A stretch of DNA of 54,509 nt, taken from assembly GCA_964366925.1 (NCBI GenBank), contig CAYIVX010000001.1, positions 1 through 54,509 of the forward strand. Reading direction: 5' to 3'. The position numbers were made by a program, and so were the translations under genes. This document shows positions 4,347 to 54,509 of this stretch, piece after piece (positions within the stretch are counted from its first letter, which is position 1; each line of letters begins with the position of its first letter). A model generated the notes under the pieces. That model searched no databases. It had not been told where the DNA came from and was given only the letters and a program-made list of their open reading frames with translations. This stretch comes from Candidatus Woesearchaeota archaeon (GTDB taxonomy: Archaea > Nanobdellota > Nanobdellia > Pacearchaeales > GW2011-AR1).

Positions 4347-4631
4347 TTATTCCTTAACTTTCTTGTAACCCACGATTCGTCTTTTCTTACCCTCGCCTTC
4401 GTATATTGGAACTTCTTCTGCAATGTGTTTAACATTTCCAGATTTAGAGAATCCGCTATCGCTTAGAACAAAAGCAATTCCGCCTACAACAAGAACAATT
4501 CCAGCCATTACAGTATAAAGCATAGATTTTGCCCCTAGAAAAGTTAGCATAGGCACAATTTTACTGCTAAGAGCAATTACTGCTAAACCTACACCTGCTG
4601 CAGAATAACCAATAATATTTCCTGTTCCCAT
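4347..4631 (-). CDS. Small 3-TM membrane protein
   Basis: 94-aa ORF rich in G/A/V hydrophobic spans, with tail EGEGKKRRIVGYKKVKE. Its 3' end is duplicated at 2971-3122. Confidence 0.6.
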   Translation of the reverse strand: MGTGNIIGYSAAGVGLAVIALSSKIVPMLTFLGAKSMLYTVMAGIVLVVGGIAFVLSDSGFSKSGNVKHIAEEVPIYEGEGKKRRIVGYKKVKE

Positions 4632-4683
4632 CTTTTTATAATTTAGATTAGTTTGTTATATTTATAAAGGTTATCTTATCTAC

Positions 4684-4825
4684 CTCGCTTCGCTCGCTTT
4701 TTTATGTAAGGCTTCGCTTATTACTAATTCTTAATAATGCAATAAAACTGTATGGGAGCTGTTTTAACCTTTTTATGCTTGTTCTGCTCAAAATTTCTGC
4801 TTCCTAATTGTGATATTATTATAAT
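4684..4825 (-). repeat. Family-1 intergenic repeat, inverted copy
   Basis: The reverse complement contains GGAAGCAGAAATTTTGAGCAGAAC (compare 20436 GGAAGCAGAAGTTTTGTGAAGAGG). It also contains AAGCGAAGCCTTACATAAAAAAGCGAGCGAAGCGAG (compare 23883 GCGAAGCACTTATTTGAAAAAAGCGAGCCGAAGG). Confidence 0.5.
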
Positions 4826-4893
4826 TTTTTATTAATTGGCGCAAGCTAAAAATTAAAAGTTAGTTTTAAAAACTAAACTTGTTAATAAGGGGT

Positions 4894-5718
4894 ATGAGTA
4901 ACTATGATATTATTGGAAGTATTGCAATCGTTAAGTTTGCTGATGATGCCACGACTGATTTTAAAAATAAATTTGCTAATGATTTTTTAAAAGAACATGG
5001 TAATATTAAAACTGTTCTTGAAAAAACTGAAAAGGTTCATGGAAGATTAAGGACGATTAAAACTAATTTTTTGGCAGGGATTCCAACTTTAGAAGCTGAT
5101 TATAAGGAAAGTGGATGCAGATTTAAATTAAATCTTGAAACATGTTATTTTTCTCCTAGGCTTGCAAATGAAAGACTTCAGATTGCTAAGATGATTGGTA
5201 AACTTGTGAAAAAAAAGAAAAATGCAAGTGTCTTAGTTTTATTTTCTGGAGTTGCACCTTTTCCGATAGTTATTGCTAAATATGCTAAACCTAAACATAT
5301 TACTTCAATTGAATTGGGCAAGGATTGTAAAAAATATGCTATAGAGAATATTTATCTAAATAAGGTGGGGGATATTGTTGAGCATATTCAGGGCGATGTA
5401 AATAAAGTTTTGCCAAAACTAGCTAAAGGAAGGTTGAGTGTTAAGGGAAACTTGGTTCCCTTACATTTTGATGTTATTGTGATGCCTCGCCCTAATCTTA
5501 AGGATACTTTTTTGAAAGCTGCCCTTGGTGTTGCTAAGAAAGGAACGGAAATAATTTATTATGGATTTTTTCCTGAAGCTAAAAAGGATAAAATGGTTGA
5601 AGATTTAGTGAAAGAAGCTAAAAAATATAAAAGAAAATTAAAAATTGTTAGAGTCTTAGAAGCAGGTAATATTGCACCTTATGAGCATAGATATAGGGTT
5701 GAGATGAAGGTAGAATGA
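4894..5718 (+). CDS. trm5: tRNA methyltransferase of the Trm5/Taw2 (Met-10+) family
   Basis: Has CYFSPRLANERLQI (the FSPRLxxER motif), SAM-binding-like VLVLFSGVAPFPI, and FDVIVMPRPN. ATG at 4894 is preferred over the TTG at 4879 given in the track. Confidence 0.7.
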   Translation: MSNYDIIGSIAIVKFADDATTDFKNKFANDFLKEHGNIKTVLEKTEKVHGRLRTIKTNFLAGIPTLEADYKESGCRFKLNLETCYFSPRLANERLQIAKMIGKLVKKKKNASVLVLFSGVAPFPIVIAKYAKPKHITSIELGKDCKKYAIENIYLNKVGDIVEHIQGDVNKVLPKLAKGRLSVKGNLVPLHFDVIVMPRPNLKDTFLKAALGVAKKGTEIIYYGFFPEAKKDKMVEDLVKEAKKYKRKLKIVRVLEAGNIAPYEHRYRVEMKVE

Positions 5719-12510: not shown

Positions 12511-12576
12511 GAGTTATTATTGTTTTATTGATTATAAAGATTTTTATATGGACTTAATCCTTATTTTAATATCTTT

Positions 12577-12649
12577 AGTCCCGTAAGACAGTGGTCAAGT
12601 CTTCGAGATTCTGAATCTCGCAACCCCGGTTCGAATCCGGGCGGGACTA
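12577..12649 (+). tRNA. tRNA-Gln (anticodon CTG)
   Basis: Manual fold: acceptor AGTCCCG/CGGGACT (A1:U72), D stem AGAC/GTCT, anticodon stem CGAGA/TCTCG with loop TTCTGAA, T arm CCCGG-TTCGAAT-CCGGG, discriminator A. 73 nt. Confidence 0.85.
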
Positions 12650-12766
12650 TTTTTATTCTAAAAATAGTTAGTATTTTAATCGGATTCGAACGCACAGAAA
12701 ATCATCTATTTTCTGAGATTTAAAAACAAGTATATTTTTAAATAATCCGGGCGGGACTATTTTTAT
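12634..12766 (+). repeat. Perfect 23-bp direct repeat of the tRNA-Gln 3' end flanking an 87-bp insert
   Basis: AATCCGGGCGGGACTATTTTTAT occurs at 12634-12656 and 12744-12766. The insert carries hairpin CAGAAAAT-catct-ATTTTCTG (12695-12715) and an inverted 11-nt T-arm fragment, CGGATTCGAAC. Confidence 0.8.
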
Positions 12767-16575: not shown

Positions 16576-17733
16576 TTAGATATCCTCCTTTATCTCTAAA
16601 TGTAAGCTATCCGCTACCATATCGAACTTTTTAATATATTTTTCAAGATTTGCCAGCCGTTCTTGCATTATAACCTTCTCTTTCTCAGATTTTTCGAGTC
16701 TTTGCTCAATTTCGGTTTTTGTTAGATCTAGAAGCATATCTTCCTGACTTATCGTATCCTTCATTCCCAATAATTCAGAATAATAATGGATTTTATCGCT
16801 TTTTTTCCAGCCAAATCTATACTTTAAGGCAGATTCAGACTTATATCTTGGAAGCCAGTAACAGCAAGCATTATGTCTAAAATCGTATAAAGTTAATTCA
16901 GAATATTTCTGCCCAGCAGGGCTTTTTCCTTCACCCAGTACTCTCGTAGCTAATCTTTGGAGATACTGATTTGTTCTGCTCGGGCTTATTTTAAATAGAT
17001 AATCTTCAGAGTTTAATTGGAAAACCTTGATATATTCTTTGATTAATTCTGAACTTAACATTAGCTTAATTCTTCTTCCGAAAGTTTTGCTGATTTCATC
17101 TCGTATATTAAGCTCTTTGAAATCATTAAAGAAGTCTGATACTTTTATATTCATTAATTCTGTAGGCGCCCTAATTCCCGTATCAAAAAGAAACATCATT
17201 AAGACTTTATAATTAAATTTAGCATTATCACATAATTGCTTGACCTGCTCTTCAGTTAAATATACCCAATCAGGTTTATCTCTAGAAGTATCAAGATCGA
17301 TAGTTATATCGGGTATATCTTTCCCTTTTTTCCTATTAACTTTTTGATACCAGTGCCAGAAAGCCTTGAATGCTTTAACATAATCCGCAGTTGCTATAAA
17401 CACCTCGCCATTAAGCCTTCTTATCTCTCCATAACGCATTCCTGAGAAAAAGCCCATTAGTTGTTCTTCACTAATATCTATCACACAATCAAGATCGTGC
17501 AATTCCTTAAATTTCTTTGAAAAGAAAATAAGTCTATTCTTTAAAGAATTCAGTCTTGAATGGCTTCTAGACCCTTTAACACTTTCTTGAGCAATATTTA
17601 ACCCCTTTTCCATATCGTTTAGATATTGAAGTATAATTGCAGAATTTTTTTGACTTACACTTGCAATATTCTGCTGATTTTTATCTTTCCATGCAAGATA
17701 CATTTCTTTATGTTTGTACGGGTCTATTTTCAT
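16576..17733 (-). CDS. Tyrosine recombinase / integrase
   Basis: Has FDTGIRAPTEL (box I Arg), LYDFRHNACCYW (H/R box) and SDKIHYYSELLG (candidate catalytic Tyr). 385 aa with a coiled-coil C-terminus. Adjacent to the right att-like repeat. Confidence 0.85.
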   Translation of the reverse strand: MKIDPYKHKEMYLAWKDKNQQNIASVSQKNSAIILQYLNDMEKGLNIAQESVKGSRSHSRLNSLKNRLIFFSKKFKELHDLDCVIDISEEQLMGFFSGMRYGEIRRLNGEVFIATADYVKAFKAFWHWYQKVNRKKGKDIPDITIDLDTSRDKPDWVYLTEEQVKQLCDNAKFNYKVLMMFLFDTGIRAPTELMNIKVSDFFNDFKELNIRDEISKTFGRRIKLMLSSELIKEYIKVFQLNSEDYLFKISPSRTNQYLQRLATRVLGEGKSPAGQKYSELTLYDFRHNACCYWLPRYKSESALKYRFGWKKSDKIHYYSELLGMKDTISQEDMLLDLTKTEIEQRLEKSEKEKVIMQERLANLEKYIKKFDMVADSLHLEIKEDI

Positions 17734-20580: not shown

Positions 20581-21117
20581 ATGAAAGAGGGAGAAGTAAT
20601 AAAAGAGCTTAGGCAGGCAAATATTAGCCTCATACTTGATTCTTATGAAGATATTTTTTCAAGTTTTGATCCACGGGAATATTCTGAACGAGCATTATCT
20701 GATGATTTTTTAATAGAGTGTAATCATGCTGCCATGGATAAGGGTGAGGGTATTGAACTTATTTTATCTATGCCCAAAAATAAACGAAATTTTAATGATG
20801 AATTTAAAATTAAAAAAAGATTAAAAGAACATTTTAAAAAACATTTTCTTGAAAAGCAAAAGGAACAAAAAGCTATTAAAAAACAAGGAATAATTTGGAT
20901 TTTAATTGGAACAATTCTTCTTTTTACAGAAACTTTTATTAAAACATATAGCTCTGGTTTTATTTTAAATATGTTAAGCTTGATTATGGAGCCCGCAAGC
21001 TGGTTTAGTTTTTGGGAAGGGTTGGCTAAAGTATTTATTTATGCTAAACAGGAAGTTGTTGATTATGATTTTTATAAAAAAATGGCTAATGTTTCCGTAA
21101 CATTTATTTCTTATTAA
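20581..21117 (+). CDS. Hypothetical protein with C-terminal TM segments
   Basis: 178-aa ORF with a K/E-rich middle and two or three C-terminal hydrophobic spans. Its stop abuts the start of the pilin-like gene. Confidence 0.5.
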   Translation: MKEGEVIKELRQANISLILDSYEDIFSSFDPREYSERALSDDFLIECNHAAMDKGEGIELILSMPKNKRNFNDEFKIKKRLKEHFKKHFLEKQKEQKAIKKQGIIWILIGTILLFTETFIKTYSSGFILNMLSLIMEPASWFSFWEGLAKVFIYAKQEVVDYDFYKKMANVSVTFISY

Positions 21118-21609
21118 ATGGGACTTTCAAAAATCGGTTTGATAAAAAATAAGCAGGGATGGCTACGAATAGTTGAAGCTTTTATTTCCGTAATGTTAAT
21201 TATGGGTGTTGTTTTAGTTGTTGTCTCAAAAGCTCAGCCAAAAACTTCTACTGCTGATGAGATTAGAAGGATTCAGAAATATGCTCTTGATTATGTTACT
21301 AATGATGAAACTTTAAGAAATCAGATTCTTAGTGGTAATTTGATGGGGGTTAATGATAAATTGAAATCAATTATTCCTGGAAATTTGAATTATCTTATTC
21401 GGGTGTGTAATTTTAATGATGTTTGCTCATTTACTAATGGTTCAAAGGGCATTATTGTTTCTACCGAAGTTTATTCTGACGAGGCCCCAATTTTTGCAAA
21501 TCTTACTTATTATGATCCTGCTAATCCTAAAAAATTAAAACTGTTTTTTTGGGAAGGTAATTATCCTGCAGATGTTACACCCCCAAATTATTCAGTTAGA
21601 CAAGTTTAG
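21118..21609 (+). CDS. Type IV pilin-like protein (class III signal peptide candidate)
   Basis: The N-terminus is MGLSKIGLIKNKQGWLRIVEAFISVMLIMGVVLVVV: a basic leader, a Gly, then a hydrophobic helix containing a Glu. The remainder looks like a secreted domain. Confidence 0.45.
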   Translation: MGLSKIGLIKNKQGWLRIVEAFISVMLIMGVVLVVVSKAQPKTSTADEIRRIQKYALDYVTNDETLRNQILSGNLMGVNDKLKSIIPGNLNYLIRVCNFNDVCSFTNGSKGIIVSTEVYSDEAPIFANLTYYDPANPKKLKLFFWEGNYPADVTPPNYSVRQV

Positions 21610-21619
21610 AAATCAAGAT

Positions 21620-22240
21620 TTATTCTTCAAGAACTATTCTTGCATCAATAACTTTAGCTTTATTTTTTGAAATGGTTAAGGGATTAATATCTAATTCAAT
21701 TATGTTTGGATGTTTTTTTACTAAACTTTGTATTTTATCTATATTTTTTTCTATTTCTTCAAGAGTTACATCTTTTTCTTCTAGAATTTTATAAAACTTA
21801 GTCTCTTTAATCATTTCTTTTAATTCTTTTTTAGTTGTTGGAAGAACTCTAAAAGAAACGTCTTTTTCTTTTTCTACATTAATTCCACCGTGTCCGAATA
21901 AGATTATATGCCCAAATTCTGGAGTTTTTTTAATTCCAATTATAGCTTCTTCTCCAGAGAACATTTCTTGAACTATTGCTTCTTCAAAGCCTTCTATTTT
22001 TGAAAGTTTATCAAATGCTTCTTGTGCAGACATTGAATTATTTATATCCAATATAACTCCGCCAACCTTAGCCTTGTGTGCTATCTTTGTAGAACTTAGT
22101 TTCATTGCCCAGGGAAATTTTATTGTTTTTGCTGCTGTTTTTACTTCTTCGCTACTTTTTATTGAAGCTCTTTTGATTACCTTAAATCCTTCTTTTTCTA
22201 GAAAGTTTTCAGCTTCTTTTTCAGTTAATGTTTTTTGCAT
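21620..22240 (-). CDS. acdB: ADP-forming acetyl-CoA synthetase beta (ATP-grasp) subunit-like protein
   Basis: 206 aa. EAENFLEKEGFKV...KFPWAMKLSS...HKAKVGGVILDI...GFEEAIVQEM is typical of an ATP-grasp_5 domain. Divergent from the alpha subunit gene. Confidence 0.65.
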   Translation of the reverse strand: MQKTLTEKEAENFLEKEGFKVIKRASIKSSEEVKTAAKTIKFPWAMKLSSTKIAHKAKVGGVILDINNSMSAQEAFDKLSKIEGFEEAIVQEMFSGEEAIIGIKKTPEFGHIILFGHGGINVEKEKDVSFRVLPTTKKELKEMIKETKFYKILEEKDVTLEEIEKNIDKIQSLVKKHPNIIELDINPLTISKNKAKVIDARIVLEE

Positions 22241-22252
22241 AAATCTAAATGG

Positions 22253-22437
22253 AACAAAACCTATTTATACCTTGCTCTTTTCGATATTAAATGTAGGAGG
22301 GATAAGTAAAAAACTTAAATCAGCCCTTCGGGTTCGTGTAGAAAAGTTTTTTATATCTCAGAAAATCCTTGATTTTCTGATCTGTTATTTTTGTAACTAA
22401 ATTTAACAACAAAAATAACAAAACCTATTTATACCTT
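22253..22437 (+). promoter_or_regulatory. Perfect 21-bp direct repeat AACAAAACCTATTTATACCTT (TATA-containing) flanking a 143-bp insert
   Basis: Copies are at 22253-22273 and 22417-22437. The second lies ~25 nt upstream of the acdA ATG (22461). The first lies ~30 nt upstream of the family-2 element. Confidence 0.6.
22303..22392 (+). ncRNA. Family-2 structured element, copy 1 (candidate small RNA or terminator module)
   Basis: Helix TAAAAAACTT/AAGTTTTTTA encloses CAGCCCTTCGGGTTCGTG. Then comes hairpin CAGAAAAT-ccttg-ATTTTCTG and the tail CTGTTATTTTT. About 78% identical to 33264-33349 (minus strand), with compensatory changes. Confidence 0.45.
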
Positions 22438-22460: not shown

Positions 22461-23732
22461 ATGGAAAGTTTAAAAGAGTTTTTTAATCCTAAGACGATAG
22501 CAGTAATTGGGGCTTCAGATCATGAAGAAAAAGTTGGTGGGATATTATCAAAAAAAATAATGGAATCCAAGGCAAAATTAATTCCTATAAATCCCAAACA
22601 CGAAGAGATTTTTGGAATAAAATGCTATAAAAATATTCTTGACTATTCTGGTAAGATTGATTTGGCAATTATTGTTATTCCCTCTTTGTTTGTTGTTGGG
22701 GCAATGAATGAATGTGCTAAAAAAAATATAAAAAATGTAATTATCGTCAGTGCTGGTTTTTCTGAAATTGGAAATACAAAAGGAGAACAAGAATTAATCG
22801 AGATAGCAAATAAAAATAATATTCGATTTATTGGACCTAATTGTTTCGGTATATGTAATCCCTATAGAGAGTTAGATACTACTTTTTCAGCAACAGGTCC
22901 GAAGAAAGGAAATATTGCATTTATCAGTCAAAGTGGTGCATTATGGAGTTATTTATCTGATTTTTGTGGTGATAAGAAAATTGGTTTTTCCGGATTTGTT
23001 AGTCTTGGGAATATGGGTGATTTGGGTTTTAATGATTTTATAGAATATTTTTCAGAAGATAAAAATACAAAAAACATTCTTCTTTATGTTGAAAAATTAA
23101 AGGATGGTAAAAAATTTATAAAGGCCTGTAAAAAATGCAAAAAACCGATTTATGCTATAAAAGCTGGAAGTTCTGAAGTTGGAAGTAAGGCTGCATTTAG
23201 TCATACTGCTAGTTTAGCTTCTGATTATGAAATTTATCGTGGTGCATTTAAACAGGCAGGAGTTATTCTTTGTGATTCTTTACTAGAAGCTTTAGAAAAA
23301 ATGACTGGTAAAAAGATAATTGATGTAAAACCCAATTCTGTTGTAATCGGAAAAAAAGTATTTATTATAACTAATGCTGGTGGTGCTGGTGCTTTGCTTT
23401 CAGATTATCTTTCTAAGAAAGGTTTCGAAGTAGTTAAGCAACCTTGGGACATTATCGGAACAGCAACTGGCAGTGATTATTTTAATGCTCTTGAAAAGAT
23501 TAAAGCTGAAACTTTTTATGATTCTATTCTAGTTCTTCTTACTCCTCAAAGTATGACTGAGATTAAAAAAACGGCTGAAGCAATTACTACTTTTAGGGAT
23601 TTTACTAAAAAAAGTGTAGTTGCTTTATTTTTGGGAAAAGAAGCTGTTGGAGAAGCTACGCCTATTTTTGAAGAAGCAGGAATTCCTTATTTTAATACTC
23701 TTGAAGAAGCTAGGGAAGTTTTGAGTTTTTAG
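22461..23732 (+). CDS. acdA: ADP-forming acetyl-CoA synthetase alpha subunit (CoA-binding / succinyl-CoA-synthetase-like)
   Basis: FFNPKTIAVIGAS (CoA-binding start), GPNCFGI, ISQSGAL, and SHTASLAS (phospho-His loop-like). Confidence 0.8.
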   Translation: MESLKEFFNPKTIAVIGASDHEEKVGGILSKKIMESKAKLIPINPKHEEIFGIKCYKNILDYSGKIDLAIIVIPSLFVVGAMNECAKKNIKNVIIVSAGFSEIGNTKGEQELIEIANKNNIRFIGPNCFGICNPYRELDTTFSATGPKKGNIAFISQSGALWSYLSDFCGDKKIGFSGFVSLGNMGDLGFNDFIEYFSEDKNTKNILLYVEKLKDGKKFIKACKKCKKPIYAIKAGSSEVGSKAAFSHTASLASDYEIYRGAFKQAGVILCDSLLEALEKMTGKKIIDVKPNSVVIGKKVFIITNAGGAGALLSDYLSKKGFEVVKQPWDIIGTATGSDYFNALEKIKAETFYDSILVLLTPQSMTEIKKTAEAITTFRDFTKKSVVALFLGKEAVGEATPIFEEAGIPYFNTLEEAREVLSF

Positions 23733-24806: not shown

Positions 24807-25020
24807 TGTTTAGAATGCACGAGTGATTATCAAAAAAACAATTTGCTATCATACCTTAAACGGTGTGGTTTGTAAGGGCATTTGTTTTTTGGATGAAGGA
24901 AATTTCAATGAAATTTTCTACCCTGAAAATTATTTTAATTTTCAGTGATCCAAAACTTAAAACAGTAAAGCTACTACCTCCTTCTAAAGAATTGGGTTTT
25001 AAGTTTATGGACATAAAAAA

Positions 25021-25999: not shown

Positions 26000-28900
26000 A
26001 TGGGGTGGAGTTTATTTGACGAAAAAGGGGATATTTTGCCCGCAAAGGTTTTTAGTAATGGAAAAAATCAGGAAGATGTTGTTCTAGAAGTAGTTAATGA
26101 AATAAAAAAAGGTACAAAAATTATTTTTATTCATGGAGTTTGTGGTAGCGGGAAATGTCTTGAAAAGAATACCCGAATATTCTGTAAACCGAAGGGGATT
26201 GACTACTTGGGTTATTATCCAATTTCTCAACTTGTTGGAAAAGAGGGAATTATAGTTTCGCTGGATAAAACGGGTAATATGGTTGAAAGTAAATTTACAA
26301 ATGTCGTAAATAGTGGTAAAAAGAGGCTATATAAAATAAAAACAAGAACGGGTAGAGATTTGCAATGTTCGATTAATCATCCGTTCTTGACAATTACGCG
26401 TAATGGTTTAGAATGGTTACCTTTAGAAAAATTAGATAAAAATTCCTATATTTGTTTGCCAAATAAGACCTCTCTTAAAAATCAAGCCTCTTTGGACAAA
26501 AATAAGATTAAGATTTTAGCTCATTTAATTGCTGAAGGTAAATTAGGCGATAAAAATGGTTCACCTAAATATTATCAAAATCCATTGACTGATTTAGAAG
26601 TAAGGCAAGATTATGAAAATGCATTAAAGAAATTATTTCCCGAAGGACAATTAAAGAGTTCTTCTCCTTGTGAGGTCACTATGGCATTTAATAATAAAGA
26701 TACTAGATTTGGAACTACTAATAAACTTAGACTTTTAATTAGAGAGTTTGGTTTAGACGGCGGGAAGTCGGGGGATAAGTTTGTTCCGCCAATTATTTTT
26801 AATTTAAATGATGCTGATGTTGCCTTGTTTTTAAAAACCTTATTTTCAGGAGATGGAACTATTTATGAAAAAAAGAGTCATGCAAGAGAGAATTCTACGA
26901 TTATTGTAGAATATTGTTCTATTTCAAAAAAACTTATACAAGATGTTTCTATGCTTTTAATGAGATTCGGAATACAACACACGATAACTCCCAAAAAATT
27001 TAGAGAAGATAAAAATTATTCTTGGACTATTCATATCTCCAATCAAAAACAAGTTAGAAAATTTATCAAAAATATTGGTTTTATTGGTAGAAAACAGGTA
27101 TTTGCTGAAAAAGTATTAGGAAGTTTACAAGATCATAAATTTACCAACATAGATAAAGTTCCAAGAGTTATAAGAGAATATTTGAAAGATAGGGGTTATA
27201 CTTATAATGATCTTTATCGATTCTTGAATTATACTGAATTTGAAAAATTTAAGGATGTGGGATTTAAGAAAATTTTGAATAAGAAATTAGTAAGTTGTCC
27301 TTTTGTGTTTAGACAACAGAAAATAGACTTTTTGAGAGAACATATAACAAAAATAAAGGAACATATTAAAGACGCTACTCCTGATTTTATATGCAGTGAA
27401 GATATTTTTTGGGATAGATTAGATAAAATTGAATTTATTGGAGAGGATGAAACTTATGATTTGGAAGTTCCACATTATCATAATTTTATTGCTGATGGAA
27501 TTATTGTGCATAATTCGGCTATCGCTCTTAATATTGCTCGTGAACTTGGTAGGGCTAGTATTGTTGTTCCAATAAAGAATCTTCAGAGACAATATGCTGA
27601 GGATTATACTAATAAAAAATATGTTCTTAAAAAAGATGGCAAAAAATTAAAAATATCCCTGATTACGGGTAGAAGAAATCATATTTGCCCTTACTTGAAA
27701 GACAATCAAAAAGATATTTTATTAAGCAGAATTAGAGAGAAAAATGCAAATCTTACAGATATTTTTTCAGGAGTTAATTCTTCTAATTTTCATCGAAAGA
27801 ATGCAGAGGAGGATGATTCTTGTGATAATTATCTTATCCCCTGTAAAATTGAAATAAAAAGCAAAAATATTTCTACACTTAAGAAATATTATAATGAGAA
27901 TCCTGATAGGAAAGATAATTCGGAACTAGATTTGAAGGTTGCTAAGAGATTTGCGGTTGCTCCTGCTTGTCCTTATTGGAATCCTATTTTGCCTACTGAA
28001 ATGAATGTCAAGAACGATTGGTTAAAAAAAGAATATAAATCTGTTGCAGGGAGTCATACTATCTATGTTAGAAAAGATGGATGCCCCTATTATCGACAGT
28101 TTGAAGCTTATGCGGACTCTGATGTAATTATCTTTAATGGCGATCAATATATACTAGAAACTGCACTTGGAAGAAAGCCTTCTACTGATGTTGAAATAAT
28201 TGATGAGTGTGATGAATTTTTAGATAATTTTGCACTGGAGGGATCAATAAATATTACTAGGTTGAGAAATGAATTGTCCGGAATTATGTGTAGTGATGAT
28301 GCTCAAAGAAAACTTGTTGATGGGCTTAATGAGGGGCTTCTTGAAATTCTTGAAGAGTCTTCTAAGAATATTGATAAAAAAGATAATATTCTTGAAGTTA
28401 ATAAAACTAAAGTTTCTGAATTAATTGCCGCACTTGTTAAAAGTGATGTTTTTGAAATTATGAGTGATGAAAGTTATTTGGAGCATTGTGTTGAAGAAGC
28501 AAGAAAATTTTTTGATGTTATGGATGAAAGTTTTGTTAATTATTATAAAGATAAAAATCGAGGAGATATCTTTGTTAAACTTGTTACTATTAACTTAGAT
28601 AAGCTTCTTTCTTCTCTTATTGAAAAGAATAAGGCTTTTGTTTTTATGTCTGGAACTCTCCATAGCAAAAGAGTTTTAGAAGAAATTTTTGGATTGAAGG
28701 ATTTTAAGATTATTGATGCAGAAACTTTTAAGCTTGGAACTATTAAAAAACTTAGAACAGGTTTAGAGCAGGATTTAAAATTTGATAATTTTGAAAAGAA
28801 GGTAGTTAGTCGTGAAAAATATTTATTGGCCTTGGATAAGTGTGTTGAGATTGCTAAAATTCCTATTCTTGTTCATGTTAGTGCATTTAATGATTTGCCT

Positions 28901-29293
28901 TCGACTAATGAAATTGAGCAATTTAGACTAAAGAATCTTATCAGTTTTTCAGAATTAGTTGAACAGCAAAATTCAGATCGTGAAGGAAAGATGGTAAATG
29001 ATTTTAAGGCAGGAAAAATAAAAATTCTTTTTACTACAAGATGTAATAGGGGTATTGATTTTCCTTTTGAGACTTGCAATAGCGTTGTAATAACTAAATT
29101 TCCCTATCCTAATACCCAGTCTTTATTTTGGAAAATTTTAAAACAAAATAAGCCCGATATTTTCTGGGATTTTTATAAAGATAAAGCTTATAGGGAACTT
29201 TTGCAAAAAGTTTATCGAAGTGTTCGGGCGGTTAATGATTCTGTTTTCTTGCTTTCCCCAGATATACGTGTTATGAATAGTAGTGTTGTGTAG
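26000..29293 (+). CDS. XPD/Rad3/DinG-like superfamily-2 helicase interrupted by an intein
   Basis: The extein P-loop is HGVCGSGK|...|SAIAL. Cys-rich insert: HICPY, SCDNYLIPC, ACPYWNP, GCPYYRQ. DExD-like IIDECDEF. GIDFPFETCNSVVITKFPYP and QKVYRSVRAVNDSVFLLSPDIR resemble XPD motifs V/VI. Confidence 0.75.
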   Translation: MGWSLFDEKGDILPAKVFSNGKNQEDVVLEVVNEIKKGTKIIFIHGVCGSGKCLEKNTRIFCKPKGIDYLGYYPISQLVGKEGIIVSLDKTGNMVESKFTNVVNSGKKRLYKIKTRTGRDLQCSINHPFLTITRNGLEWLPLEKLDKNSYICLPNKTSLKNQASLDKNKIKILAHLIAEGKLGDKNGSPKYYQNPLTDLEVRQDYENALKKLFPEGQLKSSSPCEVTMAFNNKDTRFGTTNKLRLLIREFGLDGGKSGDKFVPPIIFNLNDADVALFLKTLFSGDGTIYEKKSHARENSTIIVEYCSISKKLIQDVSMLLMRFGIQHTITPKKFREDKNYSWTIHISNQKQVRKFIKNIGFIGRKQVFAEKVLGSLQDHKFTNIDKVPRVIREYLKDRGYTYNDLYRFLNYTEFEKFKDVGFKKILNKKLVSCPFVFRQQKIDFLREHITKIKEHIKDATPDFICSEDIFWDRLDKIEFIGEDETYDLEVPHYHNFIADGIIVHNSAIALNIARELGRASIVVPIKNLQRQYAEDYTNKKYVLKKDGKKLKISLITGRRNHICPYLKDNQKDILLSRIREKNANLTDIFSGVNSSNFHRKNAEEDDSCDNYLIPCKIEIKSKNISTLKKYYNENPDRKDNSELDLKVAKRFAVAPACPYWNPILPTEMNVKNDWLKKEYKSVAGSHTIYVRKDGCPYYRQFEAYADSDVIIFNGDQYILETALGRKPSTDVEIIDECDEFLDNFALEGSINITRLRNELSGIMCSDDAQRKLVDGLNEGLLEILEESSKNIDKKDNILEVNKTKVSELIAALVKSDVFEIMSDESYLEHCVEEARKFFDVMDESFVNYYKDKNRGDIFVKLVTINLDKLLSSLIEKNKAFVFMSGTLHSKRVLEEIFGLKDFKIIDAETFKLGTIKKLRTGLEQDLKFDNFEKKVVSREKYLLALDKCVEIAKIPILVHVSAFNDLPSTNEIEQFRLKNLISFSELVEQQNSDREGKMVNDFKAGKIKILFTTRCNRGIDFPFETCNSVVITKFPYPNTQSLFWKILKQNKPDIFWDFYKDKAYRELLQKVYRSVRAVNDSVFLLSPDIRVMNSSVV
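26156..27514 (+). mobile_element. Intein (453 aa) with LAGLIDADG homing-endonuclease domain inserted in the helicase Walker A motif
   Basis: Starts with Cys (CLEKNT). Block B is CSINHPFL. LAGLIDADG motifs are ILAHLIAEGKLGD and LFLKTLFSGDGTIY. The C-terminus reads YDLEVPHYHNFIADGIIVHN, followed by +1 Ser. Confidence 0.85.
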
Positions 29294-33247: not shown

Positions 33248-33263
33248 GTTGTTTTTATGAAAT

Positions 33264-33349
33264 AAAAATAACAGTCAGAAATTTTTAATTTCTGAATGTA
33301 AAAAACTCTTCATCACGAACCCGAAGGGCCAGTTTGAGTTTTTTACTTA
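33264..33349 (-). ncRNA. Family-2 structured element, copy 2
   Basis: The minus strand reads TAAGTAAAAAACTCAAACTGGCCCTTCGGGTTCGTGATGAAGAGTTTTTTACATTCAGAAATTAAAAATTTCTGACTGTTATTTTT. It lies directly 3' of the 44-aa Zn-finger ORF. Confidence 0.45.
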
Positions 33350-33363
33350 GTTATTTATTTTAT

Positions 33364-33498
33364 TTAACTTTTTACTTTTAATTTTAAATCAGTGCCGACT
33401 AATTGATAATTTTCATGTTTAGTGTGCATATGATGAAGTATGGCTTCGGTTTTATTTTCAAATATATCGCTGCAATCTAAACAAAGGTAATCTGCCAT
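33364..33498 (-). CDS. Small C2H2-type zinc-finger protein (44 aa, not in ORF track)
   Basis: Own translation: MADYLCLDCSDIFENKTEAILHHMHTKHENYQLVGTDLKLKVKS. It shows the pattern C-x2-C-x12-H-x(3-5)-H. Confidence 0.45.
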   Translation of the reverse strand: MADYLCLDCSDIFENKTEAILHHMHTKHENYQLVGTDLKLKVKS

Positions 33499-42090: not shown

Positions 42091-42699
42091 ATGTTCTATG
42101 TTGTTGATGTAGGAGATTATGTAAGAGTTGAGCCGAAGCTTTTCGGACTAGATACTAAGACTGCTGTAGAGGAACAACTAGCAATTACTTATAATAATTA
42201 TCATGATGAAGAAATTGGTGAAGTTATTGCTGTTATTGATGTAAGTACGGTTGGAGATGGTATAATTATACCTGGTGACGGTGCTGCATATTATAATTCT
42301 GAATTTAAATTACTTGTTTGGAAGCCTGAAATAAATGAACTTGTTTTTGGAACCATTACTGAAATAACTACTTTTGGAGCATTCTTGAATATGGGTGCAA
42401 TGCAAGGAATGATTCATATTAGTCAGACAATGGAAGATTTTGTAAGTTTTTCAACATCAAATGTTTTAAGTGGAAGAGCTACTAAGAGAGTATTGAAGAA
42501 AGGTGATAATTGTCTTGCTAGAATTGTTGCAATTTCTTATAAGGGCGATCAACCTAAAATTGGATTAACAATGAGACAACCTGGATTAGGTAAACTTGAA
42601 TGGATTGAAGAAGAAAAGAAGAAAGAAAAATCTGCTGCAAAGAAAGCAGAGAAAGAAGTTAAGGCTGATAAGAAAGAAAAGAAAGGAGCTAAGAAATAA
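42091..42699 (+). CDS. rpoE: DNA-directed RNA polymerase subunit E' (Rpo7) with S1 domain
   Basis: MFYVVDVGDYVRVEPKLFG, GDGAAYYNSEFKLLVWKPEINELVFGTITEITTFGAFLNMG (S1 fold). K/E-rich tail. Confidence 0.85.
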   Translation: MFYVVDVGDYVRVEPKLFGLDTKTAVEEQLAITYNNYHDEEIGEVIAVIDVSTVGDGIIIPGDGAAYYNSEFKLLVWKPEINELVFGTITEITTFGAFLNMGAMQGMIHISQTMEDFVSFSTSNVLSGRATKRVLKKGDNCLARIVAISYKGDQPKIGLTMRQPGLGKLEWIEEEKKKEKSAAKKAEKEVKADKKEKKGAKK

Positions 42700-42701
42700 A
42701 A

Positions 42702-42896
42702 ATGGTTAAAAAAGCAAAAGCTTGTAAAAAATGTAGATTTATATTTGAAGAAGGTGAAAGATGCCCAAAATGTGGAAGTAATGCTTTTACTGAAAATTGG
42801 AAGGGAAAAGTTGAAATAATTAATCCTGAACAATCTGAAATTGCTAAACAATTAAAACTTGCTGAAAAAGGTATTTATACAATTAAGAGCGATTAA
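42702..42896 (+). CDS. spt4: Transcription elongation factor Spt4 (RpoE'')
   Basis: Zn ribbon ACKKCRFIFEEGERCPKCGS, followed by WKGKVEIINPEQSEIA. 64 aa. Immediately after rpo7. Confidence 0.8.
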   Translation: MVKKAKACKKCRFIFEEGERCPKCGSNAFTENWKGKVEIINPEQSEIAKQLKLAEKGIYTIKSD

Positions 42897-43173: not shown

Positions 43174-43241
43174 TTAAAAGATAAAACAGATTCAAAAATC
43201 AGATAAAAGCTTCGCTTTGTCCATACAAGATTTTTGAAATT

Positions 43242-43274
43242 CTGGAAATTAAGAATTTCCAGACTGTTCTTTTT
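43242..43274 (+). terminator. Hairpin plus T-tract (terminator-like) between rps24e and rps27ae
   Basis: CTGGAAATT-aag-AATTTCCAG is followed by ACTGTTCTTTTT. The same hairpin-CTGTTnTTTTT arrangement occurs at 22372-22392 and on the minus strand at 33264-33295. Confidence 0.4.
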
Positions 43275-43289
43275 GTGCTCAAAAACAAC

Positions 43290-43864: not shown

Positions 43865-44338
43865 TATATCTTCACATAAATTTGCTTTAAAAGGATTATG
43901 GTTAGGGAAAGATATATTTGAAATAAGCTTAAAAGATTTTGGTTCTCATTTAAGAAATGAGAATATACAGAAAATCACTATTTTCTGTCTATAGACAATT
44001 CTGAGAATCTAGTTGCAAATAGTTCAGAATTCTCTAAAAGGCAATTCTTTAAAATGTGCAGTATAATCTCTAGAATTGCCTATAATAAAAATCTAGACGC
44101 ACCTTAGAGAATTACTAATTCTCTAATTCATTCAAAATCATTGTTTTTGAAGACTTCGGCGTAAGCTTGAAAGATTTTTATTATGTCCATAAATTAAAAT
44201 TTTATTTTAATTTTGGATCATACAAAAAACAAACGATTTAAAATAAATAAAGAATTGTTTTTTGATAAACCCGAAAGAGAGTTTGACTAAACCCCGAGGT
44301 TTTTTCGATTATTTAAAATTTTCTTGTTAAAAAATAGT

Positions 44339-45272: not shown

Positions 45273-46391
45273 ATGGAAGAAAATGAGGCAAAAGATGCGA
45301 TTAGCAGTATTCCTGACGTTGAGATAAAAAGAAAACCCGAACATCCAGTTCACAATCAGGTGTATAATATCGTTCTTGGTAAAGACCCTTCTTGGCAGGG
45401 GATTATTTATGATTTAATTGCAAGTGAACAGCTTGACCCTTGGAATATTGATATTTCTGTTCTTTGCAGAAGTTATTTTGAAAAGATAAAGATTCTTGAG
45501 GAAAATAATTTTCATATTTCTAGTAAGATGCTTCTTGCTGCTGCACTTTTGCTTAGGATAAAGTCTGAAATTTTGCTTAATAAGTATATCCGGGATATTG
45601 ATAATATTTTGTTTCCTCATGAAGAAGAAGTTAAAAGAATTATTGAGAGAATTGAAATAGATGAAAATGAAATTCCTGTTCTTTCTCCTAAAACTCCCCT
45701 TCCACGATTTAAGAAAGTTACTCTTCAGGAGCTTATTGATGCATTAGATACTGCAATTAAAACTGAAGGTAGAAGAATTGATAAAGAAATTCAGAAAAAA
45801 CAGGCTGAAAGATTATCTCATGTTGATATTCCTAAATTTAGAAGAGTGAATATTAAAGAAAGAATAAGAAAATTTTATGCTAGATTATTATCTTCATTTA
45901 AAAAAGCTGAAATAGAAAAAACAATAAAATTGCCCTATAGTCATTTTACTGGCAATAATAAAGAAGAGCGGATTGCTTGTTTTCTTCCGATGTTATATTT
46001 AAGCAATCATGGAAAAATTTGGATAGAACAGGAAAAACACTACTCGGAAATTTATCTTTATCTTTATGAGCATTTTAAGAAAGCTTTTCCTGAACACGAT
46101 AAAGAATTAATTGATCCTACTGAAACTTTAGAAGATATTCCTGCTGAACTTATGGAGCAAATAGGTGAGAATGAAGAAGCAGAAGCAATCGAACTAGAAA
46201 AAGAAATTAATAAACTATCTGTTGAAGAATCGGAGAAAGAGAAAAAAGTTGAAGAGATAAACAAGGATTCAGTAAAATCTGATGATTTTTCTGACTCTCC
46301 AAAACCTCAGAAGTATAAGTCAGAAGATTTTGGAGATTTTGAAAATCCTCTTGGTGATTTGATTGACAAAGAAGAAGATTTGAATATATAG
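45273..46391 (+). CDS. scpA: Segregation and condensation protein A (ScpA kleisin) with acidic C-terminal extension
   Basis: LIASEQLDPWNIDISVLCRSYFEKIKILEENNFHISSKMLLAAALLLRIKSEIL is the ScpA N-terminal signature. The E/D/K-rich tail runs to 372 aa. Confidence 0.75.
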   Translation: MEENEAKDAISSIPDVEIKRKPEHPVHNQVYNIVLGKDPSWQGIIYDLIASEQLDPWNIDISVLCRSYFEKIKILEENNFHISSKMLLAAALLLRIKSEILLNKYIRDIDNILFPHEEEVKRIIERIEIDENEIPVLSPKTPLPRFKKVTLQELIDALDTAIKTEGRRIDKEIQKKQAERLSHVDIPKFRRVNIKERIRKFYARLLSSFKKAEIEKTIKLPYSHFTGNNKEERIACFLPMLYLSNHGKIWIEQEKHYSEIYLYLYEHFKKAFPEHDKELIDPTETLEDIPAELMEQIGENEEAEAIELEKEINKLSVEESEKEKKVEEINKDSVKSDDFSDSPKPQKYKSEDFGDFENPLGDLIDKEEDLNI

Positions 46392-51001: not shown

Positions 51002-51943
51002 ATGAGAATAATTCTAGGGAAAGGATATCAAAAGAAGCTTATTTTAAATGCAAAAGAAAAGAATAATTTTACTTGGGAAGAATTGACTATGAAACTTGGG
51101 TTTACAAAACATTATTGGAGTAATGAATTATTTAATGAAAAAATAAGTATTAATGAAAAAACATATAGCTCTTTGTGTAAACTTGTCGGAGAAAATTTTG
51201 ATAAGTATATTGAAAAGAAACTGGATGATAATTGGGGTAGGTCAAAAGGTGGCAAGAATTCTGGTAGTTTTAGAGAACCAAAACTTTTGATAAAAAAACC
51301 TTCAAAAGAATTAGCCGAAATTGTAGGAATTATTCTTGGAGATGGAAATATTTACTCTAAGAAAGGATATTATTATGTTAGAATATGTGGCGATAGCATA
51401 AAAGATAGAGATTATTTATTAAATCATGTTAAACCGATGTTTGATCATTTATTTGATTGTAAAATGTATTCTATTGAACACAAAATAGCTAATGAACTAT
51501 TCATTTCGATTGGTAATAAGGATATTGTTTATACCTTGAAGCATTTTGGTTTGAAAGACGGAGATAAAATGAAAAATAATGTTAAAATTCCTAATTGGAT
51601 ATTTGAATCAGAAGATTATATTCGGGCATGTGTAAGGGGATTAATAGATACCGATGGTTGTGTTTGTCCTATTACTGGAAGGAATTATCCTTATATCTGG
51701 TTTTCATGTGCTATTGAAAATTTAAGAAAAAGTTTTGATAAGGCTATGAAAAAAATAGGTATTAAAACTTCTAAATGGAATATAAGACCCCCACGGACTC
51801 CTGATATTTATATTGGAAGTAAGGAGATGATTAACAAATATATTCAAACAATAAGTTTTAAAAACGAACGACATTTGACTAAATTAGATAAATTAAGCCC
51901 CCGTCGTCCAGAGGCCAAGGACACGGCCCTTTCAAGGCTGTAA
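51002..51943 (+). CDS. Free-standing LAGLIDADG homing endonuclease-like protein
   Basis: Two LAGLIDADG motifs: LAEIVGIILGDGNIY and ACVRGLIDTDGCV. The last 47 nt run into tRNA-Glu(UUC). Confidence 0.7.
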   Translation: MRIILGKGYQKKLILNAKEKNNFTWEELTMKLGFTKHYWSNELFNEKISINEKTYSSLCKLVGENFDKYIEKKLDDNWGRSKGGKNSGSFREPKLLIKKPSKELAEIVGIILGDGNIYSKKGYYYVRICGDSIKDRDYLLNHVKPMFDHLFDCKMYSIEHKIANELFISIGNKDIVYTLKHFGLKDGDKMKNNVKIPNWIFESEDYIRACVRGLIDTDGCVCPITGRNYPYIWFSCAIENLRKSFDKAMKKIGIKTSKWNIRPPRTPDIYIGSKEMINKYIQTISFKNERHLTKLDKLSPRRPEAKDTALSRL

Positions 51944-51969
51944 CCCGGGTTCGAATCCCGGCGGGGGCA
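51897..51969 (+). tRNA. tRNA-Glu (anticodon TTC)
   Basis: Manual fold: GCCCCCG/CGGGGGC acceptor, D GTCC/GGAC, anticodon stem CGGCC/GGCTG with loop CTTTCAA, T arm CCGGG-TTCGAAT-CCCGG, discriminator A. 73 nt. Confidence 0.9.
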
Positions 51970-53165: not shown

Positions 53166-53292
53166 GAGCCCTTAGCTCAGCCCGGTTAGAGCACTGCTCT
53201 TATAAGATTAAATTTCGCTAGAAATTTATTTTTCCTTCCTTCGGGAAGACTAAGAAAGGCAGGGGTCCCACGTTCAAATCGTGGAGGGCTCA
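53166..53292 (+). tRNA. tRNA-Ile (anticodon TAT) with a ~52-nt canonical-position intron (53205-53256)
   Basis: Manual fold: GAGCCCT/AGGGCTC acceptor, D GCTC/GAGC, anticodon stem CTGCT/GGCAG (one G-U pair) with loop CTTATA|intron|A, T arm CCACG-TTCAAAT-CGTGG, discriminator A. Intron ends are +/-2 nt. Confidence 0.7.
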
Positions 53293-54176: not shown

Positions 54177-54394
54177 AAATTATTTCTTATCTAAACCTAT
54201 TTAAAGTTTTATTTTGGTGAATATATGGATAAAAATAAATTCAAAAAGCAACTAAAACCTTCGGTTTGAGCTACAAGCTTTTAGGAAATAAAATTTCCTA
54301 ACTCTCCAACTTTCACAAGTTGAAGATTTTGATACTCAGAAATTCCCCGAATTTCTGATTTTTTTATTTTTAACTAAGGAGAAAAAAATAAAAA

Positions 54395-54484: not shown

Positions 54485-54509
54485 AGATCGGAAGAGCGTC
54501 GTGTAGGGA
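54485..54509. other. Illumina TruSeq adapter sequence (non-biological)
   Basis: AGATCGGAAGAGCGTCGTGTAGGGA is the start of the standard Illumina adapter AGATCGGAAGAGCGTCGTGTAGGGAAAGAGTGT. Confidence 0.9.

Follow-up and report, generated by a model that had tools for sequence, protein, structure and literature searches.

A dispersed three-hairpin element placed before start codons in a Candidatus Woesearchaeota archaeon and its relatives

The 54,509-nt stretch of DNA from a Candidatus Woesearchaeota archaeon analysed here (the window) carries at least four copies of a structured element of about 118 nt, detected with a covariance model, and further copies are present in relatives. Copies have been gained and lost between close relatives, and compensatory changes on the sense strand preserve the helices. 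On balance we lean towards reading the element as a lineage-restricted, non-autonomous, structured dispersed repeat that is transcribed as a 5′ leader or as intercistronic RNA. The original prediction had described a two-hairpin element of about 90 nt, present twice. Its core observation was real, both in the occurrences of the two repeated words on which it was built and in the folds; the family proved to be larger, and its members longer, than had been proposed.

The window has a GC content of 30%. Its archaeal traits include an intron-containing tRNA, TATA-type promoters, and genes for S24e, S27ae, Spt4, RpoE′ and the p30 subunit of RNase P. Identical proteins were found only in Hainich groundwater assemblies (well H43, 0.1-µm fraction), and the nearest named AcdB homologue, at 83% identity, comes from a MAG labelled "Nanoarchaeota archaeon", which places the host among the DPANN archaea. 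Contigs of relatives, given L numbers below, were reached through homologues of S24e and AcdB. At 53166–53292 a 127-nt tRNA with a long intron was recognised by Rfam (50 bits) and was not reported by ARAGORN.

Copy 1, the element of the original prediction, was extended to 22300–22419 on the plus strand (99.5 bits with model R2). Its 16-mer GCCCTTCGGGTTCGTG occurs exactly in the window only at 22323–22338 (plus) and 33314–33329 (minus), against a chance expectation of 0.07, and copies 1 and 2 are 80% identical across about 90 nt, close to the 78% first given. A covariance model made from copy 1 alone (model R1) was run against the window with filters off. Copy 2 (33248–33363, minus strand) scored 77.9 bits (E 1e-12). 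Copy 3 (43180–43289, plus strand), a site first picked up by an nhmmer profile made from copies 1 and 2, was matched at 43187–43275 with 45 bits (E 2.3e-6). Copy 4, a composite form at 54227–54394 on the plus strand, was matched at 54285–54371 with 31.6 bits (E 8e-4). The same model also matched L087, L095, L174, L222 and L224, and gave no false matches in 477 kb of unrelated contigs. Lesser matches at 46257–46338, 43930–43991, 24894–24958 and 12682–12745 lay within coding sequence or resembled the element in a hairpin only, and were not counted as copies. The whole sample is small, at about 10 copies.

Copy 2 occupies the entire spacer between the stop codon (33364–33366) of a 44-aa zinc-finger ORF, which it had been said to follow directly, and the ATG (33247) of a 169-aa ORF. 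The 44-aa CxxC...HxxxH ORF (33364–33498, minus strand) is a real conserved gene, and in L220, L222 and L223 it likewise adjoins the 168/169-aa gene. A co-occurring strain variant (L083, 3150–3289) equals the window through copy 2 save for one SNP (GTGTTGAA) and departs from it exactly at the 3′ end of the element, where AAAAACAACAT is followed by CGATAC; the element may be a recombination breakpoint in this strain. Copy 3 lies between rps24e (stop codon 43171–43173) and rps27ae (ATG 43290), and copy 4 between a promoter and a P-loop kinase gene (ATG 54395). The window ends in Illumina adapter sequence (AGATCGGAAGAGCGTCGTGTAGGGA, 54485–54509), and three independent Hainich assemblies also break at ~54484, about 90 nt past copy 4. 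A search for contigs reaching beyond the window ends gave the same break points and no further sequence.

From 5′ to 3′ the element consists of a GAUAAA-type edge, hairpins H1 and H2, ACUGUU with a U-run, and an A-rich tract. H1 is a branched hairpin: its outer helix is A/U-rich, its internal loop asymmetric, and its inner helix 5 bp long with a C-UUC-G closure. H2 is a simple hairpin. H3 is formed by ACUGUU and the U-run paired with the 3′ A-rich tract, and the A of the downstream AUG usually lies in its last pair. The tail CTGTTATTTTT, which had been taken as the end of the element, opens this third hairpin, and the length is therefore about 118 nt (~120) rather than about 90 nt; composite forms reach about 200 nt. 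The two-hairpin folds of copies 1 and 2 (−21.9 and −24.7 kcal/mol) lie below dinucleotide-shuffled controls, with z scores of −3.2 and −4.6. Copy 1 begins with GGAUAAG; its H1 outer helix pairs 22306–22316 with 22344–22354, its inner hairpin pairs 22322–22326 with 22330–22334 around the UUC loop, its H2 pairs 22358–22367 with 22371–22380, and its H3 pairs 22384–22394 with 22409–22419 (arms GUUAUUUUUGU and ACAAAAAUAAC). H3 of copy 2 spans 33273–33247 on the minus strand, with the A of the ATG paired. Copy 3 has the inner hairpin AAAGC-UUC-GCUUU, an H2 of UCUGGAAAUU/AAUUUCCAGA and an H3 of UGUU.UUUUUG/CAAAAA.AACA. In copy 4, H1 (~54241–54283, with outer helix AAAAGC/GCUUUU and inner hairpin AAACC-UUC-GGUUU) is followed by one H2-like hairpin and one small hairpin; H2 is at 54336–54358, and H3 pairs 54359–54371 with 54382–54394 (U7AU5 with A7UA6). 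Extra hairpin modules are also carried by L174, whose H3 is GUUUAUUUUUC/GAAAAAUAAAC, and by L224b.

Comparison of the copies shows helices that change on both sides. As originally described, the outer helix is AACTT/AAGTT in copy 1 and AACTC/GAGTT in copy 2. The second stem, said to be CAGAAAT/ATTTCTG in both, has that sequence in copy 2 and is CAGAAAAT/ATTTTCTG in copy 1, one extra A-U pair apart. The inner hairpin is AGCCC/GGGUU in copy 1, GGCCC/GGGUU in copy 2, AAAGC/GCUUU in copy 3, AAACC/GGUUU in copy 4 and L095, AAGAC/GUCUU in L087 and ACCC/GGGU in L174. The C-UUC-G closure is thus constant while the helix sequence varies by copy, so that the 16-mer, exact in copies 1 and 2 and originally called invariant, marks one subfamily only; across the family the inner hairpin covaries and nothing but its UUC loop is constant. 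H2 variants are shared between different loci, and the unpaired loop sequences differ between copies. In an alignment of six distinct full-length copies fitted to the model (A8), 148 of 148 base-pair cells pair, with double-sided changes in 14 of the 26 pairs. The covariation score was 0.58, against 0.03–0.11 when the partners were slid by 1–3 columns, and none of 500 shuffles reached 0.58. Six cells are G-U and none is A-C, a pattern that favours the sense strand as the one that folds.

H3 is weak and A-U rich (−3 to −10 kcal/mol), and is present in the minimum-energy fold of the full spacer of every copy. Duplexes between cognate U-tracts and A-tracts averaged −6.55 kcal/mol, against −3.40 kcal/mol for non-cognate pairs, and none of 20000 permutations was as good. 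The U-run, which follows H2 and ACUG, could be read as a terminator, as in intrinsic-terminator-like repeats of the SPRITE type, in which a U-run comes directly after a hairpin; it forms the 5′ arm of H3, whose 3′ arm ends at the start codon, and it is broken up in L087, L095 and L222 (UUCGUUUUG). An alternative closing helix (P1), in which the A-rich 5′ edge would pair with that U-tract, was not significant (p ~0.06), and a switch mechanism is therefore conjecture. One decayed copy without H3 was found at the rps24e–rps27ae junction of L095 (6690–6810), which suggests neutral drift of some copies.

Relatives with 81–88% protein identity have empty sites where the window has copies 1, 2 and 3. 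The rps24e–rps27ae spacer measures 116 nt in the window, where it holds copy 3, against 6 nt in L087, 10 nt in L092 and 4 nt in L098. Between the 44-aa and 169-aa genes, the 116 nt that hold copy 2 compare with 9 nt in L220 and 5 nt in L222/L223. The acdB–acdA spacer is 220 nt long with two copies of a 21-mer around copy 1, against 56 nt and a single 21-mer in L220 and L222/L223. The reverse situation occurs at the rpoE′–spt4 junction (42699–42702, plus strand), which is empty in the window and filled by a 118-nt copy-3-like element in L087/L088 and L095–L097. The empty site reads TAA-AA-ATGG, and the filled site TAA, 118 nt and ATGG. The 2-nt empty site shows that the A-rich ends are the element's own and that any target duplication is no longer than 2 nt; target duplication was thereby ruled out as the origin of the A-rich flanks. 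The junction between a 178-aa and a 163-aa gene (21115–21120, plus strand, TAAATG) is also empty in the window and holds one copy in L222. The start of the 163-aa gene in the window (ATGGGACTTTCAAAAATCGG, 21118–21140) includes a 10-mer, TTCAAAAATC, equal to the H1 5′ strand of copy-3-type elements; this match, at a junction whose orthologue holds a copy, could be due to chance.

In L224, where AcdB is 69% identical, one 21-mer and a leader are followed by a copy-1-like element that abuts the acdA ATG as a 5′ UTR, and a second, composite copy lies 5′ of a 280-aa gene. At least nine independent sites are filled in the window and relatives together, and in all nine of those scored the element shares the orientation of the gene that follows (p = 0.002). 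Every copy except copy 1 reaches the ATG with its 3′ end. Insertions are found at stop codon–start codon junctions or in the interval between a promoter and a start codon. At most sites a stop codon lies 0–6 nt 5′ of the element, which therefore has no room for a promoter of its own. The downstream genes, among them those for acdA, the 169-aa protein, S27ae, the P-loop kinase and spt4, are unrelated.

Copy 1 differs in its surroundings. It lies between acdB (ATP-grasp_5 domain; 21620–22240, minus strand) and the divergent acdA (CoA-binding and Succ_CoA_lig domains; 22461–23732, plus strand), and is flanked by the perfectly duplicated, TATA-containing 21-bp segment that had been reported. This 21-mer, AACAAAACCTATTTATACCTT, is exact at 22253–22273 and 22417–22437 (chance expectation 0.01), with TATA boxes at 22262–22269 and 22426–22433; the box lies 23 nt from the acdB ATG one way and 27 nt from the acdA ATG the other way. 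The downstream 21-mer, whose first 3 nt are shared with the 3′ arm of H3, is predicted to yield a near-leaderless acdA mRNA from the ATG at 22461. Read forward, the upstream 21-mer has a predicted transcription start at about 22292–22295, 5–8 nt before copy 1. Identical 21-mers were found in the window, L220 and L224, with a single copy in each of the latter two, and on this comparison the segment is the core promoter of the divergent pair and is strongly conserved. Since it is identical in three lineages, the two identical copies in the window are no proof of a recent duplication.

The original prediction had offered, as one explanation of this arrangement, an insertion with a 21-bp target duplication. 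The insertion is borne out by the 56-nt spacers with one 21-mer in L220 and L222/L223. A classical target-site duplication is not, as the other insertions duplicate at most 2 nt and the repeated segment is the conserved promoter. The sequence after the upstream 21-mer (GCTCTTTTCGATATTAAATG) resembles the leader of L220, and that after the downstream 21-mer (ATCCTTCTTTTAAATTTACAAAGATG) resembles the leaders of L222 and L224. The duplicated unit therefore probably comprised promoter and leader, about 45 nt, of which the leader has diverged and only the promoter has stayed identical. Copy 1 is an insertion into the divergent promoter region, along with which the conserved promoter unit was duplicated; acdA would keep its near-leaderless promoter, and the upstream promoter copy would now read into the element. 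At copy 4 a promoter-like sequence, AAACCTATTTAAAG (54194–54207), has a predicted transcription start at the GGAUAAA edge, and a TATA-like box in L174 possibly predicts a start right at the same edge.

Both original copies were searched against Rfam 15, and neither matched a family. At the gathering score only tRNAs were reported, and at E ≤ 10 the best matches on the element reached 9–21 bits, against thresholds of 40–80. Archaeal box C/D and H/ACA sRNAs are of similar size, and copy 2 contains GUGAUGA, CUGA and an ACA after the first hairpin. These boxes are missing from other copies (GUGUAGA and GUCCAUACAA; AUA and GAA), there is no K-turn, and both assignments were rejected because the boxes are not conserved. 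The C box is found in copy 2 only, and the CUGA belongs to H2, a covarying stem. The ACA, also confined to copy 2, is partly in a helix; the upper stem has 5 bp and a UUC loop, and the spacing is about 18 nt rather than the required 14–15 nt. Core motifs of hammerhead and other small ribozymes, of K-turns, of BHB introns and of tRNA-like punctuation were, by eye, absent or not conserved. As for riboswitches, the copies have no conserved unpaired core and no recurring class of downstream genes. Word searches in wider collections gave mainly chance hits: 45 matches of the 16-mer in viral contigs, in GC-rich DNA; 37 of GCCCTTCGGGTTCGTGNNGAA in GTDB species genomes, all bacterial; and 99 of TTTCTGACTGTTNNTTTT in viral contigs, none with the H2 partner arm. 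The pattern ACAAGATTTTTGAAATTC was too loose for metagenome contigs, and among the matches listed only L156/L190 (the L087/L088 contigs) and L174 were real.

The family has the traits by which ERIC and BOX repeats are recognised, being a multi-copy intergenic family with a conserved predicted RNA structure and modular variants, and its behaviour appears to resemble that of bacterial ERIC, BOX and MIRU-type repeats. ERIC/IRU sequences of enterobacteria are non-coding dispersed repeats of about 120 nt, located in transcribed intergenic regions including operons, with an RNA fold, with presence or absence at orthologous sites, and with effects on transcripts that depend on orientation (PMC3049150). 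The element described here is similar in size, non-coding character, RNA folding, intergenic location including operons, and polymorphic sites. ERIC, however, is bacterial and forms one long imperfect palindrome found in both orientations, whereas the archaeal element folds into three independent hairpins, occurs in one orientation only and joins the start codon directly at its 3′ end. BOX elements of Streptococcus pneumoniae are modular, with boxA, a variable number of boxB and boxC, and have much RNA secondary structure; they are co-transcribed with their neighbours, can alter downstream expression, and have terminal inverted repeats and target duplications (PMC3049150). Composite copies with added hairpin modules (copy 4, L174, L224b) recall this modularity, but the element has neither terminal inverted repeats nor target duplications and shows no sequence similarity to BOX. 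It also shares an intercistronic, co-oriented position abutting stop and start codons with the MIRUs of Mycobacterium tuberculosis. These are reportedly intercistronic in operons, co-oriented with the flanking genes and in contact with stop and start codons, and are said to contain small ORFs for translational coupling and to form tandem arrays. The element, in contrast, is non-tandem and has no coupling ORF (copy 3, read by eye). A search of the literature for a described archaeal or DPANN equivalent found none. What stand out are the single orientation, the fusion to the start codon through a covarying hairpin, and the presence of such an element in a genome with almost no intergenic space.

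Several other explanations were weighed. Independent genes for trans-acting sRNAs of about 95 nt, in which H1 and H2 end at the U-run as an archaeal oligo-T terminator and the RNA is perhaps bound by Sm-like proteins, would account for the TATA-like boxes 23–31 nt 5′ of the edge in copies 1, 4 and L174, for the run of 4–7 U after H2 in every copy, for the stability of both hairpins, and for H1 internal loops that vary among copies as guide sequences would. We think this unlikely. Copies 2, 3, L087/L095 and L222 begin 0–6 nt past a stop codon and have no room for a promoter, and the U-run is interrupted in L087, L095 and L222. The U-run moreover covaries with the A-tract abutting the ATG, and the functional unit therefore runs past the supposed terminator. 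Strict placement before start codons would be unexplained for a trans-acting RNA, and the two-copy sRNA first envisaged gives way to a dispersed family at nine or more sites, mostly lacking space for a promoter. A vertically inherited, non-mobile cis-regulatory leader (a riboswitch or protein-binding operator before particular genes) would fit the structure, the sense orientation upstream of genes and the hairpin over the start codon; it is largely refuted by the filled and empty sites, and we regard it as very improbable. Orthologous sites are empty in close relatives, the downstream genes have nothing in common, unpaired loops are not conserved between copies, and Rfam contains no match.

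A transposon derivative acting at the DNA level, either a MITE or an IS200/IS605-derived palindrome-associated element, would have hairpins that a trans-acting transposase recognises as single-stranded DNA, with the RNA structure as a by-product. The element is small, AT-rich, non-coding and hairpin-rich, and is present or absent at orthologous sites, as are such elements of archaea; clean empty sites without target duplication fit the "peel-and-paste" route of IS200/IS605, the hairpins are strand-specific, and a Y1 transposase gene occurs in the relative L095. Its ends do not bear this out. The 5′ end GAUAAAACAG does not match the reverse complement of the 3′ end (GUUUGUUUUGG), so that terminal inverted repeats are lacking; no flanking duplication is present at rpoE′–spt4, and the only flanking repeat, at copy 1, is the conserved promoter. 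The left flanks (AAAA, UAA, GAAG, UAUG, GAGG) share no fixed target tetra- or pentanucleotide. Neither the 54.5-kb window nor ~200 kb of relatives yielded a partner IS with matching ends, and tblastn detected no Y1 transposase in the window. The orientation of the copies follows the local gene and not the genomic strand (copy 2 minus; 1, 3 and 4 plus), and the exact abutment to the ATG would be left unexplained. The IS200-like element of L095 (Y1 transposase gene at 4617–5072, between the prefoldin and rpoE′ genes) has GC-rich hairpins on both sides; these are unrelated to the element, and the IS was rejected as parent of the family. We judge such a derivative quite unlikely.

On the preferred reading, a dispersed repeat carried within transcripts, the position of the copies in operons and behind promoters suggests transcription of the element with the mRNA, in which it would form a 5′ leader or a spacer between cistrons. 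The folded RNA, H3 above all, would set the accessibility of the start codon, and might also give partial termination or stabilise the transcript. Spread would have followed a copy-and-paste route needing neither terminal inverted repeats nor target duplication. A bolder version, which we consider doubtful, is that of a mobile "portable leader": a structured RNA element that targets the site immediately 5′ of start codons in a single orientation, without inverted repeats or target duplication, perhaps spreading by an RNA intermediate or an enzyme, so that the third hairpin of the new leader gates the AUG. If true, genome-reduced DPANN archaea would possess a mobile regulator of translation.

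As to a mobilising enzyme, the window yielded neither a transposase nor a reverse transcriptase, but only a tyrosine recombinase, a LAGLIDADG ORF and an intein. The recombinase (Phage_integrase family, 385 aa, 16576–17733) lies a few kb from a tRNA-Gln/tRNA-Glu cluster. The 3′ end of tRNA-Gln (12576–12650, plus strand) is repeated about 90 nt downstream (AATCCGGGCGGGACTAT, ~12741–12757), and this region (12576–12760) contains, between the tRNA and the repeat, a T-arm-like piece GGATTCGAA and a hairpin CAGAAAAU/AUUUUCUG like H2 of copy 1; the repeat may be a tRNA fragment or have been left by an integration event. The free-standing LAGLIDADG ORF (51002–51943) overlaps into tRNA-Glu (51897–51969), the two together spanning 51002–51969. 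The intein, with a LAGLIDADG domain, is in an XPD-like helicase of 1097 aa (26000–29293). The helicase orthologues in L220, L222 and L224 have only 641–647 aa and thus lack it, a second insertion polymorphism of the region.

DPANN genomes are tiny and tightly packed, with gaps of 0–10 nt between stop and start codons. A structured repeat of 120 nt wedged exactly into such junctions, and turning over among relatives with 80–88% protein identity, was unexpected. It is a natural experiment in how archaea tolerate or use such inserts when translating downstream cistrons, and shows that an insertion event of this sort can duplicate the core promoter of two divergent genes. The covariance model can be used for a census of these elements, which help to account for broken contigs and for rearrangements between strains in groundwater metagenomes. 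If H3 does control access to the start codon, the element would be a mobile translational control module of a kind not described in archaea.
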